Virus record (IMG/VR): IMGVR_UViG_3300045988_150450
Location: 1 to 50,933 of that record
Length of the DNA: 50,933 bases
Direction: 5' to 3' (one strand)
From: a virus
Each line of letters begins with the position of its first letter. The first letter of the stretch is position 1. Positions 1 through 6,000 of the stretch are shown piece after piece. Made by a program: the position numbers.

Positions 1-3000
1 AGGGAGGTGAGAAAATGAGTCAGCCCTACAGAAAAGGAAACTCCTGGTACATCCGATTAGATAGCGGATACGAGATGGAGTTCCTAAGTTATGAAGAAGC
101 TTGGGAATACTACGAAGAAAGGAACTGAGGGAAAAGCCCCCGAAAGGGGGCTCACCCTGAATCATATAGGAGGATACACTATGAGAGAATATGCTGTTAG
201 AAACAACGATTTCACTAAGTTTGATCTTGACCCCGATTTTACCTTGGACAGAGTTGACCGTAACAATACCCACTACTACACCAATAACCGTTGCCCCAAG
301 TGCGACGGGAAAAAGTATATCTCTTATTACAACCATGTAGAAGGTGGTGTGTGCTTTCTCTGTGGTGGTACTGGTGTTCATCCTACCAAGGTAGTAGTTA
401 GAACTGCGGAGTACGCTGCCAAGCTGGACGCCAAGCGTCTGGAGAAAGCTCGCAAGACTGCTGAAGCTCGTAATGCTGAATATCTTCGTCGTCAGGGGTT
501 CAGTGTTGACGGAAAGACATGGGTCGTCATGGGAAACACCTATGAAATTAAAGATCAGCTCAAAGCTGTTGGCTGTAAATGGAATCAGGAGTTCGGTTGG
601 CATTTTGATCATGAGGTTACTGATTTTGATACTGTAATGGTAAGTATTGAAGACAACATTCCTTTTTGGGATGATTCCACTGAGTACATTGGTCAGTACA
701 GTAATGATGGTACTTTGTACTTTATTGCCTCTGAACTTATTCAGGATTATGTCAAATCTCTTCGTGAGAAGTATGTAGCTGATCATGCTCCCAAGACTGA
801 GTACTTCGGTAACATTGGTGACAAGGTGGAGCGCGAGGTAAAGCTCATTCGTCGTGCCGGATTTGACACTATGTGGGGAACGACCTTTGTGTACACCTTT
901 GTGGATGCCGAAGGACATCAGTTTGTGTGGAAGACCGGCTGTTACCTTGACCAGTCTGAGGACAGTACACTCACCGTCCGTGGTACGATTAAAGCACATT
1001 CTGAGTACCGGGGTGCGCGGCAAACTGAACTCACTCGGTGTAAAGTCATAGCCTGATATGGATAGTCCATATCGTGTATGTGGATTATCAATAGCTGGAA
1101 AGGAGAGGTTGACATGGACAAACTTAAACAATTGACAATTGAATATTTCACGCTTGAGGGCAAGTGCGACGGGACGGCTGAGACCTTTGCTGTTCTTCAT
1201 CCTTTGGTGAAGGATTTGGCGGAGCGGGTAAAAGACCTTCAGCGTAAGGCAAAAAGCCGCGAGGTACGATATTTTGCTTTTAAGCTGTACCAAGATGTTT
1301 CTGATATGGAAATTCGCTTTTGGAAGTATACTATTTAGAAGATAGCGTGGTACTATCAAGGACTATTCTTAGTACCGTGGCACACGGCAAACTGAACTCA
1401 CTCGCTGCAAGGTGGTCTCACGTTCGGTTTCTTGAGCAATTTCCGGCGAACGTGAGTGAGGGGAAGTAATTTATCACCGAAAATATTCGCAGCACCTCGA
1501 GGATCTCTAGATGAAGAGAATTCCCGCCCAGAGTAGGACGGGAATTCATTTTGTTATTCAGATTTCTTCAGAACAATTTGCTGAGATTTTTCATCCCAGT
1601 AGTAAACGTCCTCTCCAGGGTCAAGTTTGTCTACTGGTGCGAATTTATCTTGACCAACTCTACGAAACAGCTGAGGCTGCTTTAGCAGATGTCGATCCCG
1701 ATTTCTTTGCATTTCTCTTTGTATTTTTCATGATATTTGTCCTGAAGAGTCTCAATGTAAGAGCAGTCATAATCTACAGCTTGCAGTTCCAAGCATAATC
1801 GTTCAAGGTATTTCAGTTCTTCATCAACATCTTTGATGAGATCATTCACCTTGTTAAAATCTGCAATCTTTTTCCAGCCGATGAGATGAGCTGCACATTT
1901 CTCATACAGAGCCTTGGTATCAGTTTCCCACTGACGATACTGCTGCATAGCTCTCTGAACCGCCTGCTGTCTCGTAGTGGCCGAAACGTCATCACGGGTG
2001 TATTTATACCAGTCATCGGGAATAACCGTGATAGGCTCCAGCTCTCCACAGTCGAGGAGCATCCCGTGATGGTTCATGTAGTACCGACTTACACCGCGAT
2101 GTTCTGCAGACTCTGCAAGATACTGATACTCGTGCATACGCTTGAAACCTCTGAGACCTAGGAAATCAAACAGGTCAGCCATTTCATCGTGGAACATGAG
2201 TGCAGTAATCTGTCTTGCCATTATCACAGAGAATACTTCCCTGCAATCTTTGGGCTCATAATCTGCAAACGAGATCTTACTTTTCACCATTTGTATCACC
2301 TCCGAGTTTTGATAGAATTTCGTTGATCTTTTCATCTTGCATAGAAAGGTGATAATGGATATCATTAACTGCCTGATTAACGGTTTTACTCATTGAGCTC
2401 TGGTCAACGTTTTCGTCATAGTTTGCAAGTCCAATAAGGAACGATACAAGAGCCATTGCATCTAGCAGAGAGATACCCTCATTTGACCCTCTCATGCCAG
2501 TTTAACTACACCAACGCAAGTATGAGAAACAGAACCAGCAGCACCACTGATAGCAAGAGTGATGAGCGGACGATTCACACAGCACGTCGTGATGATAAGA
2601 TCAGTCTCGATATGAGTGGTATAGGTAGAGCCAGCAGCAACAGTCTCAGACGAGATAGCGCAAGGCAGAGCCACACCATCCTTATACATCTGCACAACGA
2701 TGACACCAGCAGCAGTAGGAGTATAGGTGACATCAGCAGACAGATGGTACAGACCAGATTTATTGACTCGAATGCTTGCAGTATTGAGTGTGAGAGAGCA
2801 TCCACTCTGTACCACAGGAGTACCTTCAATGTTCAGCGGAGTGACATCAGCGGTGAACACTTGAGTGGTGTTATTGTATACACGAATGCAGGATTTTGCA
2901 TACTGATTGTTAGAACAAGACATAATCATTTCTCCTTTCAAGTAAAACAGGGAGGGCATTTGCCCTCCCTCTTGTTGGTGGGCATAACTATATGCCAGTG

Positions 3001-6000
3001 TAAGGATTTAAGCGCAGTTACCGCAACCATAGTTGCAGCCATTGCCGTAACCATTTGCAGAATACGGGCTGCAAGTGATGTAAGCAGGACGAGCTACAGG
3101 CTGAAGCTGGTTGATCAGATACTGGTTCTGCAGGAACTGACTGTTCTCGAACTTCGCATCCTGAAGCTTGTCACGCAGTTCCTGAATGGTGTTCTGCGTG
3201 AGCATAGCTCTGGTCGCATCACCATCAGCACGGATAGCGTTGACAATCTCGCAAGTGTTGCGATAATTCTCAGCCTTAACCGAGTCAATGTTCCGGTTAG
3301 TTTCGCAGCAGCACTGCTGAGACGCGAAACGGCTTTCCTGAATCTGATTCCCAAGGCCATTGAAGCCCTGAAGCATGGTTGTGTTCATGGCATAGAAGCC
3401 ATCACACAGACCGTTCTGAATGCCGAGCACAGATCTCTGAAGGTCGTTGAAGTTGAATTCCTGACACATATCCGACCGAGTCAGAGCACCCTGAGCGCCA
3501 GCTCCGTTACCGAAGCCGAAGCCGTTGCCACCCCAAGCAAGCAGGAAGAACAGGAAGAACACCCAAATCCAGGTGCCACCTGCACCCCCAAACATGCCAT
3601 CGTTGTCTCTGTTCTGCAGCGCAGCAACATCCGCTACAGACAGACCATTACCGTCCATTCCCATAATGATACCTCCTTACAGAAATTTTATTTTCAACCC
3701 ATAGGGAACTGGGATTGAAACTGATTCCACGCCTGATCAAAATCAATACCTCTCTGCTTACAGATGTTCATACAGGTTTGCTTGATCTGTTCAGGACTTT
3801 TGCCTTGAGACATGTTCTGAGCTTGTTTGAATAAGGGGTTAGATCCAAACTGATTCATCATGAATTTCATAGGATTCATCATAGCACCCATCATCTGCAT
3901 AGGATTCATTCTTTGTTACCTCCTTTGCTCAGTCGCTGTTCAAGTTTTGTGATCTTTTGTTTAAGTTCTGTTACCATCTTTTCGAGATCTTCTTGCTTTG
4001 CATAACCAGAGAGATCAATTGGCTCCTGTCTTGGCTGTTCCATCGGTGCAGTTGGCTGATCAAGAGAGTACCTCTGGAATATGATATTGCCATCAAGCCC
4101 AAGTTGTTTTGTATAGATTTTTCCATGAGCCTTATCGGGGAAGATAAACAGAGATCCATCAAAGTCTATCATTGCAGCATTGGCTTCTTCCTCATTTGAA
4201 ACCGGTCTACCCTTGATAATTGGTGCAGCTGAAGGAGTCTGTTGTGTAGACTGCTGATAAGAATTCTGTGGGGTGTAACCCATTCCTCCTGCATACTGTG
4301 GATACTGGTTTTCCATCATTTGCAAACGCTGTTGAGCACTTTGCATACCGGGATTGTAGTACATTGGTTGATTATACATAGGTGCTCCCTCCTTACAAGT
4401 ATATTATAGTTCTAATTTGAATGGTACAAGTATCCCGAAAGTATCTCGAAAAGATAATAAAAAGATCCTCGTCACCGAAGCAACGAGGATCCTGTAATCA
4501 AAGGAGCTTATTCAGTTTGGACAGAGCTTTTGAATGGCGTCTTTTAATGGTGATCTCTGAGTATCCCAGCTGATCTGCTATATACCGAAAGTCTTTATCT
4601 TCCAGATAGTGCAGTTTCAGTATGAGTTTATCCTCTTCAGACAAGGTTGACTGCTCTAGGAGAGCATCAAAAATAGCTTTGCGTGGAATTTCTTTGAGTT
4701 TGCGTCTTGTTTCAATATGCTCACTCAATCATCTGTACCTCCCGCAGGTAGGACAACGAGATTGCCCTTTACCGGAGGATCCTTTTCCTGAGGATTTTGT
4801 GGAGCTTTTGTTTGAGTTACGAGTCCTTGTTCTTGTAATTGTTGTAGTTGTTCTGATCGTTTGTCTCGCCATAAGGTGTTACCTCCTCAGTATTCCCTTG
4901 GACATAATTGGCGTGTTCGCCGGATTGGTAAACGTTATTGCCCTCACCTTCGCCAGTATCCTGTGTTACAGTTGTCGTAATGGTTTTTTCAGTTGTGAAT
5001 TGACTCTCATAGCCAATGAAAATGCAGGAAATTACAATATTGGTCAAAATGCTGATGATAAGAACAATTCTCAGCCAAAAATCTTCCTTGCGTTTGGATT
5101 CGAGCATATTGAGTACAATTCTGTTCAAAGCTACGCTTTGATCCAATTCTTCTTTTTCCTTTATTTCATTGAGGTCTGTGTATGTGTCACTCATTCTGTA
5201 TCCCCCTTGTTAGCAAGGTGTTTCAAAGCATCTGCAATCTGAGTAAGAGCCATGTTGGTTTGTTCTTGATGACTTGCATTATGGTATAGGGTTTTGATTT
5301 TTTCTTCATGGGATTTGATATCAAGAGCTTGTTGCTGCTGTATGGAAGCCATTGATTTCAGATCCTTCTTGATCTCCTCAATCCCTTCGATTGCTTGTTC
5401 AAGTTTTTGTGAAAGAACACCTTCATTCTTGGATCGGCTCTGCATTCCAACAACAAAGGTTAGAACACCAATAATACATGCCACGAGACTGCAAATAAAC
5501 AGTACTGTTTCTTGCATTTACAACCCTCAGTTGCTATCTAACACAGCAATGTTGCCTTTGTTAGACACCTTTAAGTTCAATGCAGCAGCAATATCGCGTA
5601 CTTTTACATAGTTTGTTCCATCTTTCAAAATTCTTTCAACAGGAACTTCCTTGCCATTTACAATCATCTTGCTTTTCTCAACCATTTCGTCATCGATCCT
5701 TTCTTTGAATCTTTTCCATTGAGTATTGCCAGAGGTATGATAATAGGTGTTTGTGTCATCACCTACAAAAGGACGCGGGCACATTTTCCCAGATACGTCA
5801 TAGTGTCTGATAACATTTTCTGCTGGGATGTTATACTGCTTCATGAGCTTTCTAACAAGCCAAAGAGCATTCTCCAGTGCTCTGTCATCAAAATACCAAT
5901 CTGTATCATATGCTCCAACACGCTGCTTATTGATCTTACTCGGACGGATTTCAATACCGATGGAGTTCCAGTTCCGGCACTCCGGATGCAGTGTACCGTC

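Follow-up and report, generated by a model that had tools for sequence, protein, structure and literature searches.

A widespread phage gene module behind the lysis genes, with a putative sigma-like switch and variable accessory proteins

Why would a phage keep six small genes with transcription signals of their own behind its lysis genes? The question is raised by the virus record IMGVR_UViG_3300045988_150450, of which positions 1 to 50,933 were analyzed (hereafter the window, 50,933 nucleotides (nt) in length). Close to its left end, on the minus strand, lie six co-oriented genes, designated A to F, that the initial annotation had described as a moron-type cargo cluster of low-complexity, Cys-rich and exosporium-like proteins, speculatively read as either acting on the envelope, spore coat or exosporium of the host or serving superinfection exclusion or defense. 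We have found that this gene set represents, in the window, a phage module that is very widespread but had not been described before. S-A-B-C forms the conserved core, S being a small gene upstream of A, and the slots after C vary by lineage and are occupied here by D-E-F. We read it as an accessory fitness module that is not specific to spores and that appears to be neither part of the basic virion nor a lysogenic-conversion moron. As to its product, we tentatively propose a very late operon, activated by S, that may build a dispensable stalk-and-knob structure on the virion or the cell surface.

Extent and conservation of the module

The six open reading frames (ORFs; 4379 to 1682) were all found where they had been placed, and the unit is larger than first drawn, as it also includes S, a further ORF and a terminal hairpin:

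4498-4728, minus strand: S, 76 amino acids (aa), sigma-70 region 4 only by profile match, last gene of the lysis operon (Pfam, PHROG, locus synteny)
4452-4493, minus strand: intrinsic terminator of the late/lysis transcript, with a 14-bp stem (4462-4493), a 4-nt loop and a T-run (folding against shuffled sequences)
4397-4445, minus strand: putative operator and promoter, with direct repeats and a -10 box (repeat scan)
3906-4379, minus strand: A, 157 aa (ORF call, alignment)
3694-3909, minus strand: B, 71 aa (ORF call, alignment)
3008-3664, minus strand: C, 218 aa, core protein (phrog_16490, alignment)
2949-2996, minus strand: two intercistronic hairpins 3' of C, at 2981-2996 and 2949-2970 (z = -3.4)
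2492-2923, minus strand: D, 143 aa, predicted stand-alone jelly roll (model, Foldseek)
2277-2495, minus strand: E, 72 aa (ORF call, hydropathy)
1682-2290, minus strand: F, 202 aa, predicted five-helix ferritin fold (model, Foldseek)
1554-1712, minus strand: 52-aa ORF overlapping the end of F and kept in the closest relatives, possible seventh gene (family of 5 loci)
1518-1547, strand unassigned: 12-bp hairpin where the two genome arms converge, likely a bidirectional terminator closing the cassette (hairpin search)

Translational coupling, which had been proposed for several of the genes, was recovered as ATGA stop-start overlaps at A/B and D/E and as a 14-nt overlap at E/F; B and C are separated by 29 nt with a strong ribosome-binding site, C and D by 84 nt. 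The starts of D (2923) and F (2290) agree with homologs of 140-145 aa and about 200 aa, respectively. A 47-aa Arg/Thr/Ser-rich ORF (4729-4872, minus strand; C-terminus CPTCGRYR) overlaps the 3' end of a 125-aa membrane-protein gene, abuts the start of S and is kept in nine loci.

For the survey of the module, all ORFs around C were clustered in 86 loci. C is present in each of them, followed in frequency by A (80 loci), S (59), B (49), D (48), F (19) and E (15). In 24 loci the D slot is taken by an unrelated family of small proteins, which likewise start with Cys pairs, and in 34 loci the F slot is taken by DUF7841 (PF25223). No profile-profile similarity (hhalign) was found between D and the D-slot alternative, between F and DUF7841 or between F and the partners of C in coliphages described below. 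Homologs of A, B, C and F (and E) stand in the same order in Dulem virus 36 and in Clostridium perfringens phage PMQ04. The module is located after the lysis genes in the window and in six further loci (L005-L010), between fiber and lysis genes in others (L051, L052, L060, L061), and right after the receptor-binding protein in Dulem virus 36. The neighboring fiber, holin and endolysin genes change family while S-A-B-C stays, making the latter one of the most conserved blocks of these phages; the idea of a sporadic cargo is thereby abandoned. The block has a G+C content of 44-47% in a genome spanning 33% to 52%.

A megablast search of positions 1-9000 against GenBank phages retrieved no near-identical phage, and literature searches on the module, the C family, DUF7841, virion proteomes and BclA-like phage proteins yielded nothing relevant. 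Many contigs in IMG/VR end 1-2 kb past C, just beyond the D or DUF7841 genes (e.g., L025, L027-L029, L031, L032, L037, L040, L047, L054-L056); such repeated ends suggest that the module may sit at the physical genome end in those phages.

Natural variants illustrate that the core can be lost and is not needed for propagation. The first in-frame deletion fuses A to D and removes B and C; it was seen in three samples, in contigs of about 49.5 kb (one ENA and one JGI sample) and in a 28-kb Logan contig. The second, found in two samples, fuses the 125-aa lysis-cluster ORF (4817-5194, the membrane protein mentioned above) to D and removes S, A, B and C. Compared to the closest intact relatives, 1,218 bp (A-D fusion) and 2,372 bp (lysis ORF-D fusion) are missing, with a junction overlap of 13-15 nt. 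Both variants (genomes of about 49 kb; L168-L170, 6001-6714; L171-L172) lack E, keep F and retain the C-terminal two-thirds of D. The variants are losses, not gains, and since the two deletions are independent and both in frame, the S/A/B/C core is dispensable for the persistence of these genomes.

Host inference was restricted to large contigs, which provided a few of the matches in bacterial genomes; the majority were phage-sized contigs, which were binned into unrelated metagenome-assembled genomes (MAGs) and are mostly unusable. A 545-kb Phascolarctobacterium contig carries, in order, an amidase, a spanin-like lipoprotein (C-terminal transmembrane helix), S, A, B, C, D and DUF7841, followed by host ABC-transporter and ExbB/ExbD/TonB genes. 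The module thus comprises the last phage genes before host genes in this integrated prophage, which is in line with the position at the end of the late arm first noted for the window. Phascolarctobacterium is a diderm, non-sporulating genus. The closest match in a scan of bacterial genomes (86%) belongs to an Oscillospiraceae MAG. In two further loci (L023, 4992-5435; L089, 6012-6458) a protein with a lipoprotein signal, a coiled coil and a C-terminal transmembrane helix, resembling a unimolecular spanin, is encoded just upstream of S. Because of this spanin-like lipoprotein gene upstream of S, the sequences suggest that part of the phage group infects diderm (Negativicutes) hosts.

A putative very late switch

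S matches Pfam Sigma70_r4 (E = 1.6e-10; 40.7 bits against a cut-off of 24.1 bits), Sigma70_r4_2 (E = 3e-8) and PHROG 36, 'transcriptional regulator' (E = 1.5e-11), besides a match to Pfam GerE (E = 0.0044). The gene starts with TTG, directly adjoining the stop codon of the preceding ORF in the lysis cluster, and in the 59 loci in which it occurs it lies directly upstream of A. Between S and A, the initial annotation had placed a strong terminator and a promoter-like box. The terminator is well supported (14-bp stem and T-run, z = -5.2 against shuffles). The promoter held in part: a perfect TATAAT is found at 4403-4408, but a canonical -35 element is absent (the best candidate, TTGTAC, stands at a 15-nt spacer) and a sigma-70 scan made no call there. 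A promoter-like site that the promoter scan proposed at 4398-4371 was discarded, as it overlaps the ribosome-binding site and the start codon of A. Together with the terminal hairpin, the upstream terminator and the -10 box agree with a separately terminated and promoted unit.

What stands near the -10 box instead is a set of direct repeats. In the window, two GATACTT copies (4439-4445 and 4428-4434) are spaced by 11 nt, and TATACTT at 4397-4403 makes a third; together, these three ATACTT copies upstream of A form a cluster that has no counterpart on either strand of the window. The arrangement recurs in the S-A spacers that were extracted from every locus (44 distinct). A hairpin with a T tail opens 28 of them, with GC-rich stems that differ in sequence by lineage, and in 23 of the 44 an exact 6-mer is repeated at 10-13 or 21-23 nt downstream of the hairpin, versus 6.5 expected from shuffles (the spacers are related and not independent). 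In most lineages, the order is S, hairpin with T-run, direct repeats in phase, -10 box. The repeat word itself is GATACTT-like in the group of the window, (T)AGGGAAT in a second lineage and CGCTTTTGC in a third, and the predicted recognition helix of S varies in step with it (three motifs, three helices). We consider the S-A spacer region a putative operator/promoter.

Based on this organization, the late/lysis transcript would end at the terminator right after S and the cassette would restart at a -10 box that has phased repeats (~11 nt) instead of a -35 element. S would bind these repeats and supply the missing -35 recognition. With S at the end of the lysis operon, A to F would be switched on last, only after that operon has been transcribed, as a feed-forward 'very late' unit. 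The promoter without -35 element, the repeats and the activator gene within a late operon argue against expression from a repressed prophage. A role of S as general late activator or as Q-like antiterminator was considered and rejected: the presumed operator is seen only upstream of A, and the terminator precedes that promoter rather than following it.

Among described regulators, S comes closest to the late activators of the Ltr type from Gram-positive phages, i.e., RinA, ArpU, LtrC and DUF1492 (Quiles-Puchalt et al., 2013, PMC3753634). Similar to these, S is a small sigma-like helix-turn-helix phage protein predicted to switch on a late unit, and it matches ArpU TIGR01637 (E = 7.5e-4) and DUF1492 (E = 0.038) weakly. 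By sequence, however, S falls outside both families (19.7 versus 43.1 bits for ArpU, 14.6 versus 21.5 bits for DUF1492), and its genomic position differs as well: ltr genes lie upstream of terS and activate the packaging-to-lysis operon, whereas S (4498-4728) is far from terS (26224-26904) and its presumed operator stands in front of A only.

A second regulatory element lies within the cassette. The hairpin at 2949-2970, known from the initial annotation, exists, and the C-D spacer holds another one ahead of it (spacer z = -3.4). A stable hairpin 3' of the C gene is present in nearly all lineages, Gram-negative phages included. These hairpins are a likely attenuator or mRNA stabilizer, which would set C above D-F in abundance, and their presence in nearly all lineages fits a need for C in larger amounts than the downstream products.

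Proteins of the core and of the variable slots

Pfam, NCBIfam and PADLOC scans of A-F gave nothing above threshold, and PADLOC remained without matches even at E <= 1. Profile searches of the PDB with A, B, C and E returned nothing credible. Inspection of the sequences showed no signal peptide in A, B, D or F.

In C, the core protein, a Gly-rich hydrophobic N-terminal segment leads into a Q/N-rich helical stalk that bears an invariant CCC (C118-120); a PxPxPAY motif comes next, and the tail is rich in Cys and Gly. The protein matches phrog_16490 (E = 4.6e-21) and has at least 598 relatives in IMG/VR; a profile search retrieved at least 5,968 clusters (90% identity), all of them without a Pfam domain, and CCC is invariant across the family alignment. 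The earlier description of a Gly-rich membrane protein with 10 Cys is correct as to composition (10 Cys, 28 Gly), but the transmembrane call is borderline: the Kyte-Doolittle maximum over 19 residues is 1.77, versus 2.7-3.0 in adjacent true transmembrane proteins. In one locus (L023, 3726-4004) an XhlA-like protein of the lysis cluster, with an N-terminal transmembrane helix and a coiled coil, also ends in CCC.

Homologs of C extend to phages of Gram-negative bacteria, namely Drexlerviridae (T1-like), Seuratvirus/Nonagvirus, Sashavirus, the T5-like Epseptimavirus, PY100-like phages and eiAU, and tblastn with C matched 56 phage records. In Drexlerviridae, Seuratvirus/Nonagvirus, eiAU and PY100, the C homolog is the first gene of a four-gene cluster (phrog_9288-9157-8329-7239; e.g., CAjan gp21-24 and KarlJaspers bas06_0031-0034), all annotated as hypothetical. 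This first gene shares 31-35% identity with C, the motif CCC(E/Q)T, a helical region, the Gly-rich N-terminus and a hairpin thereafter. The clusters differ by lacking S, A and B, and their other genes have no sequence relationship with D, E and F. The hydropathy maxima of the Gram-negative homologs (1.27-1.36) reflect Gly/Ala-rich N-termini that are not convincingly transmembrane. The cluster usually follows directly on the lateral tail-fiber gene, with receptor-binding protein or tail-fiber neighbors in eiAU, Drexlerviridae, Seuratvirus and T5-like phages; the T5-like phage examined has just a short C-like gene after a fiber-like gene. Among the coliphage partners of C (L085, 5585-6985; L003, L004, L087, L173) are a His-rich protein with a weak PRA-PH/MazG-like match, a 170-aa protein with a C-terminus resembling the end of a tail-fiber PHROG (E = 1.8e-7) and an 85-aa helical protein; in CAjan, a partner is a 67-aa Cys-rich protein.

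D had been described as a jelly roll resembling BclA-C and BxpB, which is confirmed at the fold level. The model (predicted local distance difference test, pLDDT, 92.7) is an all-beta jelly roll from about residue 12, preceded by N-terminal Cys residues, and we confidently assign the predicted structure to the TNF/C1q/BclA-C type. The best PDB match in Foldseek is the BclA C-terminal domain (E = 2.7e-8, template modeling (TM) score ~0.7, 20% identity; 3tyj and 1wck at ~3e-8 to 9e-8). BxpB/ExsFA reach a TM score of 0.78, and TNF ligands, C1q domains and phage fiber or spike tips come next. Over BclA, BxpB and ExsFA as a whole, E ranges from 2.7e-8 to 7.7e-7, TM from 0.67 to 0.78 and identity from ~12 to 21%. 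Matching phage knobs are the fiber tips of cyanophages A-1(L)/A4 and the spike knob of phi812 (9k09_A, 8ke9_A, 9eul), and PRD1 P5 (1yq5) is a weak sequence match. Against Pfam BclA_C, D scores 15.9 bits (E = 0.012), under the cut-off of 38 bits. Despite the shared jelly roll, D has neither the collagen-like stalk nor the exosporium-targeting N-terminus of BclA. An exhaustive profile search assembled a D family of 674 clusters at 50% identity. Family members measure about 130-155 aa, and the best 150 of these are short stand-alone proteins (76-193 aa over the full range), and a collagen-like GXX extension is absent from D and from these 150. Ten members that were looked up are unnamed and encoded on phage-sized metagenomic contigs.

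F had been called a ferritin-like helical protein, and here the fold is likewise confirmed (model pLDDT 93.1). DSSP assigns helices at 16-43, 47-75, 104-138, 142-171 and 176-196, with the five-helix topology and long B-C loop of ferritin, bacterioferritin and Dps and a short fifth helix. Foldseek retrieves archaeal and bacterial ferritins and Bfr (target-normalized TM 0.80-0.86), and phage ferritin/Dps-like proteins in BFVD are the closest viral matches. On the basis of the model, F is a true ferritin fold; no Pfam ferritin match was obtained, the sole sequence link having E = 0.03. In a profile alignment with Archaeoglobus fulgidus ferritin, which is weak and not significant in its second half, the nearly invariant R26 aligns with the first ferroxidase Glu of ferritins and bacterioferritins, while E60, E63/H64, E122 and E158 are kept. 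The ferroxidase site looks degenerate.

The remaining proteins are small. A starts with a Q/Y/P/M-rich stretch, has a small beta-rich domain that is conserved (KGRPVS..IDFDGS..IYTKQ..LDG) and ends in a coiled coil; it matches phrog_21718 (E = 1e-5), and no relatives were found in Pfam or PDB. B is a Met/Gln-rich helical mini-protein in which 9 Met were counted among the first 18 residues, as originally noted, and its family alignment has an invariant N-P and G. Three members of this family give sub-threshold matches to SurA_N (best E = 6.7e-4) and four to Trigger_C; B is possibly a holdase-type chaperone. An STI1-like identity was rejected, the STI1 match being absent. E consists of a short hydrophobic helix (LDxxAxxSFxIGLxNYxEN) and a helical tail.

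Possible functions and their weighing

The combination of the D fold, the helical and Cys-tailed C, the exchange of proteins in the knob slot, the hairpin 3' of C and the frequent adjacency to fiber genes leads us to lean, tentatively, toward a very late operon under activation by S, the products of which would assemble into an accessory stalk and knob that the phage can do without; this may well turn out otherwise. C, kept in excess of D-F by its hairpins, would make up the helical stalk as its abundant subunit, with B as a Met/Gln-rich holdase for the hydrophobic Gly-rich end of C and A as a coiled-coil partner for assembly or anchoring. D would form a trimeric TNF-like knob, joined via its own N-terminal cysteines to the Cys/Gly-rich tail of C, and E and F, the latter a ferritin fold with degenerate metal site, would be lineage-specific helpers. 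Such a joint is favored by the Cys pattern: a Cys cluster at the C-terminus of C and N-terminal Cys in the next protein are both present in 44 loci, both absent in 7 and discordant in 19, though this is a modest correlation without phylogenetic correction. The structure would be displayed on the virion or on the membrane of the infected cell, with a role in adhesion or protection. Viral fibers in which a stalk carries a TNF-like knob are exemplified by the PRD1 P5 spike and the Sf6 tail-needle knob. D shares the knob fold with such fibers and C offers a helical stalk, yet stalk and knob would here be separate polypeptides that are transcribed apart from the tail genes, and a domain for attachment to tail or capsid is not recognizable in the module.

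Several observations weigh against a fiber. None of the ~100 annotated phage records among the matches listed (56 and 177 matched in all) labels the C homolog as a structural protein. The hydrophobic segment of C is unusual for a fiber, and the ferritin fold of F has no obvious place in one. For a component of the virion, a regulator of its own and a location behind the lysis genes are odd. D and its alternative, and F and DUF7841, have no homology, and the downstream slots may not share a single role. In PY100, finally, the C cluster stands by itself as an operon amid early genes, away from the tail genes, which also weakens the generalization that the module is always a tail-fiber accessory.

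A different product, which we regard as unlikely though deserving attention, is a very late complex that acts on the envelope in egress or in protection after lysis, with C as a spanin- or XhlA-type protein or with a released D knob that masks receptors on cell debris and thereby spares progeny virions. Holin, amidase and XhlA-like genes adjoin the module (which precedes them in L051, L052, L060 and L061), S is apparently co-transcribed with lysis genes and the module is dispensable. Moreover, the architecture of C (N-terminal anchor with borderline transmembrane segment, coiled coil, conserved Cys, Pro-rich end) would suit such a complex, and the XhlA-like neighbor in L023 has CCC as well. 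However, the T1-like, T5-like and Seuratvirus phages that have a C homolog keep their lysis cassettes elsewhere, and the Gram-negative C homologs have no convincing transmembrane segment. In addition, A-F do not match lysis families in PHROG or Pfam, and A, B, D and F have no signal peptide.

Morons of lambdoid and Gram-positive prophages, which lie between the lysis genes and the attachment site, resemble the module in position, private signals and dispensability, and to that extent the initial classification stands. It fails in that the module is broadly conserved instead of sporadic, has an ordinary base composition, occurs also in virulent phages and has a promoter that apparently depends on a late activator. 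These same features bear on a superinfection-exclusion or anti-phage defense function, which would be compatible with the location of the last phage genes before host DNA, with an own promoter and terminator, with dispensability and with the candidate membrane proteins. PADLOC, without matches to A-F, lends no support to a known defense system, and the core sequence is strongly conserved over phages of Firmicutes and Proteobacteria, while exclusion proteins are usually variable. A promoter that apparently awaits a late phage activator would act too late for exclusion, and we judge such a function improbable.

The module could also be a 'very late' self-assembly program, in which a sigma-region-4 surrogate turns on abundant Gly/Cys/Gln-rich proteins. 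With the help of the ferritin-fold protein and a chaperone of their own, these would become cross-linked around virions or lysing cells, forming a layer that protects or adheres. Baculovirus very-late genes and spore-coat assembly follow a comparable logic. We give this a slim chance; if true, it would represent a general, overlooked stage of the siphophage life cycle, the core being common to T1-like and Seuratvirus coliphages. That the module is further from known systems than a self-contained accessory operon of the phage late region seems to us a similarly long shot.

Even less probable is a set for metal or redox functions that loads metal into fibers or shields virions and DNA from oxidative damage after leaving an anaerobic host. 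F has a predicted ferritin fold resembling phage Dps/ferritin-like proteins, B is Met-rich (9 Met in the first 18 residues), C has the invariant CCC and CxC tails, and the Gram-negative partner of C with the weak PRA-PH/MazG-like match has a His-rich N-terminus. Yet, the first ferroxidase Glu is apparently Arg in F (by the weak profile alignment), sister lineages have unrelated proteins such as DUF7841 in place of F, and metal-binding families were all below threshold. The weakest explanation, a cargo that remodels the host spore coat or exosporium, was suggested by the BclA, BxpB and ExsFA matches of D, by Cys-rich and Tyr/Gln-rich proteins without signal peptides, by a small regulator like GerE and by the Spo0A_C and RemA-like genes of the phage, and it is largely refuted by the presence of S-A-B-C-D in a Phascolarctobacterium prophage with a spanin-like lipoprotein gene, by C in virulent enterobacterial phages, by a D family that is stand-alone, phage-only among the members looked up, without collagen repeats or targeting motif and under the BclA_C cut-off, and by the exchange of D and F for unrelated proteins in close sister lineages.

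The two regulatory genes cited as context are both present, in the early arm on the plus strand: the RemA-like gene (29320-29622; E = 6.2e-30) and the Spo0A_C gene (30912-31313; E = 3.2e-18), of which the 133-aa product is solely the Spo0A C-terminal DNA-binding domain, a receiver-less Spo0A that could act without phosphorylation. Elsewhere in the window, the phage has a complete thymidine-hypermodification gene set (33959-35787 and 45312-48186, plus strand, and also 35965-36447), comprising two 5-hydroxymethyldeoxyuridine (5-hmdU) DNA kinase proteins (HMUDK_hel, HMUDK_HMUD1), an amino-acid:DNA transferase, a TET-associated glycosyltransferase-like protein, a thymidylate-synthase-like enzyme and a dCMP deaminase; hypermodification of its DNA is probable. 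Inside the head/structural region lies a gene for a 431-aa protein (19920-21215, minus strand) in which BspA-type leucine-rich repeats are combined with a PKD domain; this protein may be a capsid-decoration adhesin. A 3D-domain protein of the cell-wall-binding or lytic type (33340-33978, plus strand) belongs to the early/replication arm, away from the lysis cassette.

In summary, the attractive but unsupported link to spore surfaces has been removed, and what takes its place is a module with a core protein family of thousands of members, without a Pfam model or any literature that we found, that is present in phages of gut Clostridia as well as in relatives of T1, T5 and phage 9g. Cultivable coliphages, namely CAjan and KarlJaspers of the BASEL collection, have homologs of the core gene, as do C. 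perfringens phages, so that the function is directly testable. The module also yields a phage-borne, stand-alone TNF-like family and a predicted ferritin-fold protein with an apparently altered metal site. Its regulatory design, in which a free-standing sigma region 4 is combined with a terminator, phased repeats and a -10-only promoter, may provide a new model of promoter activation.

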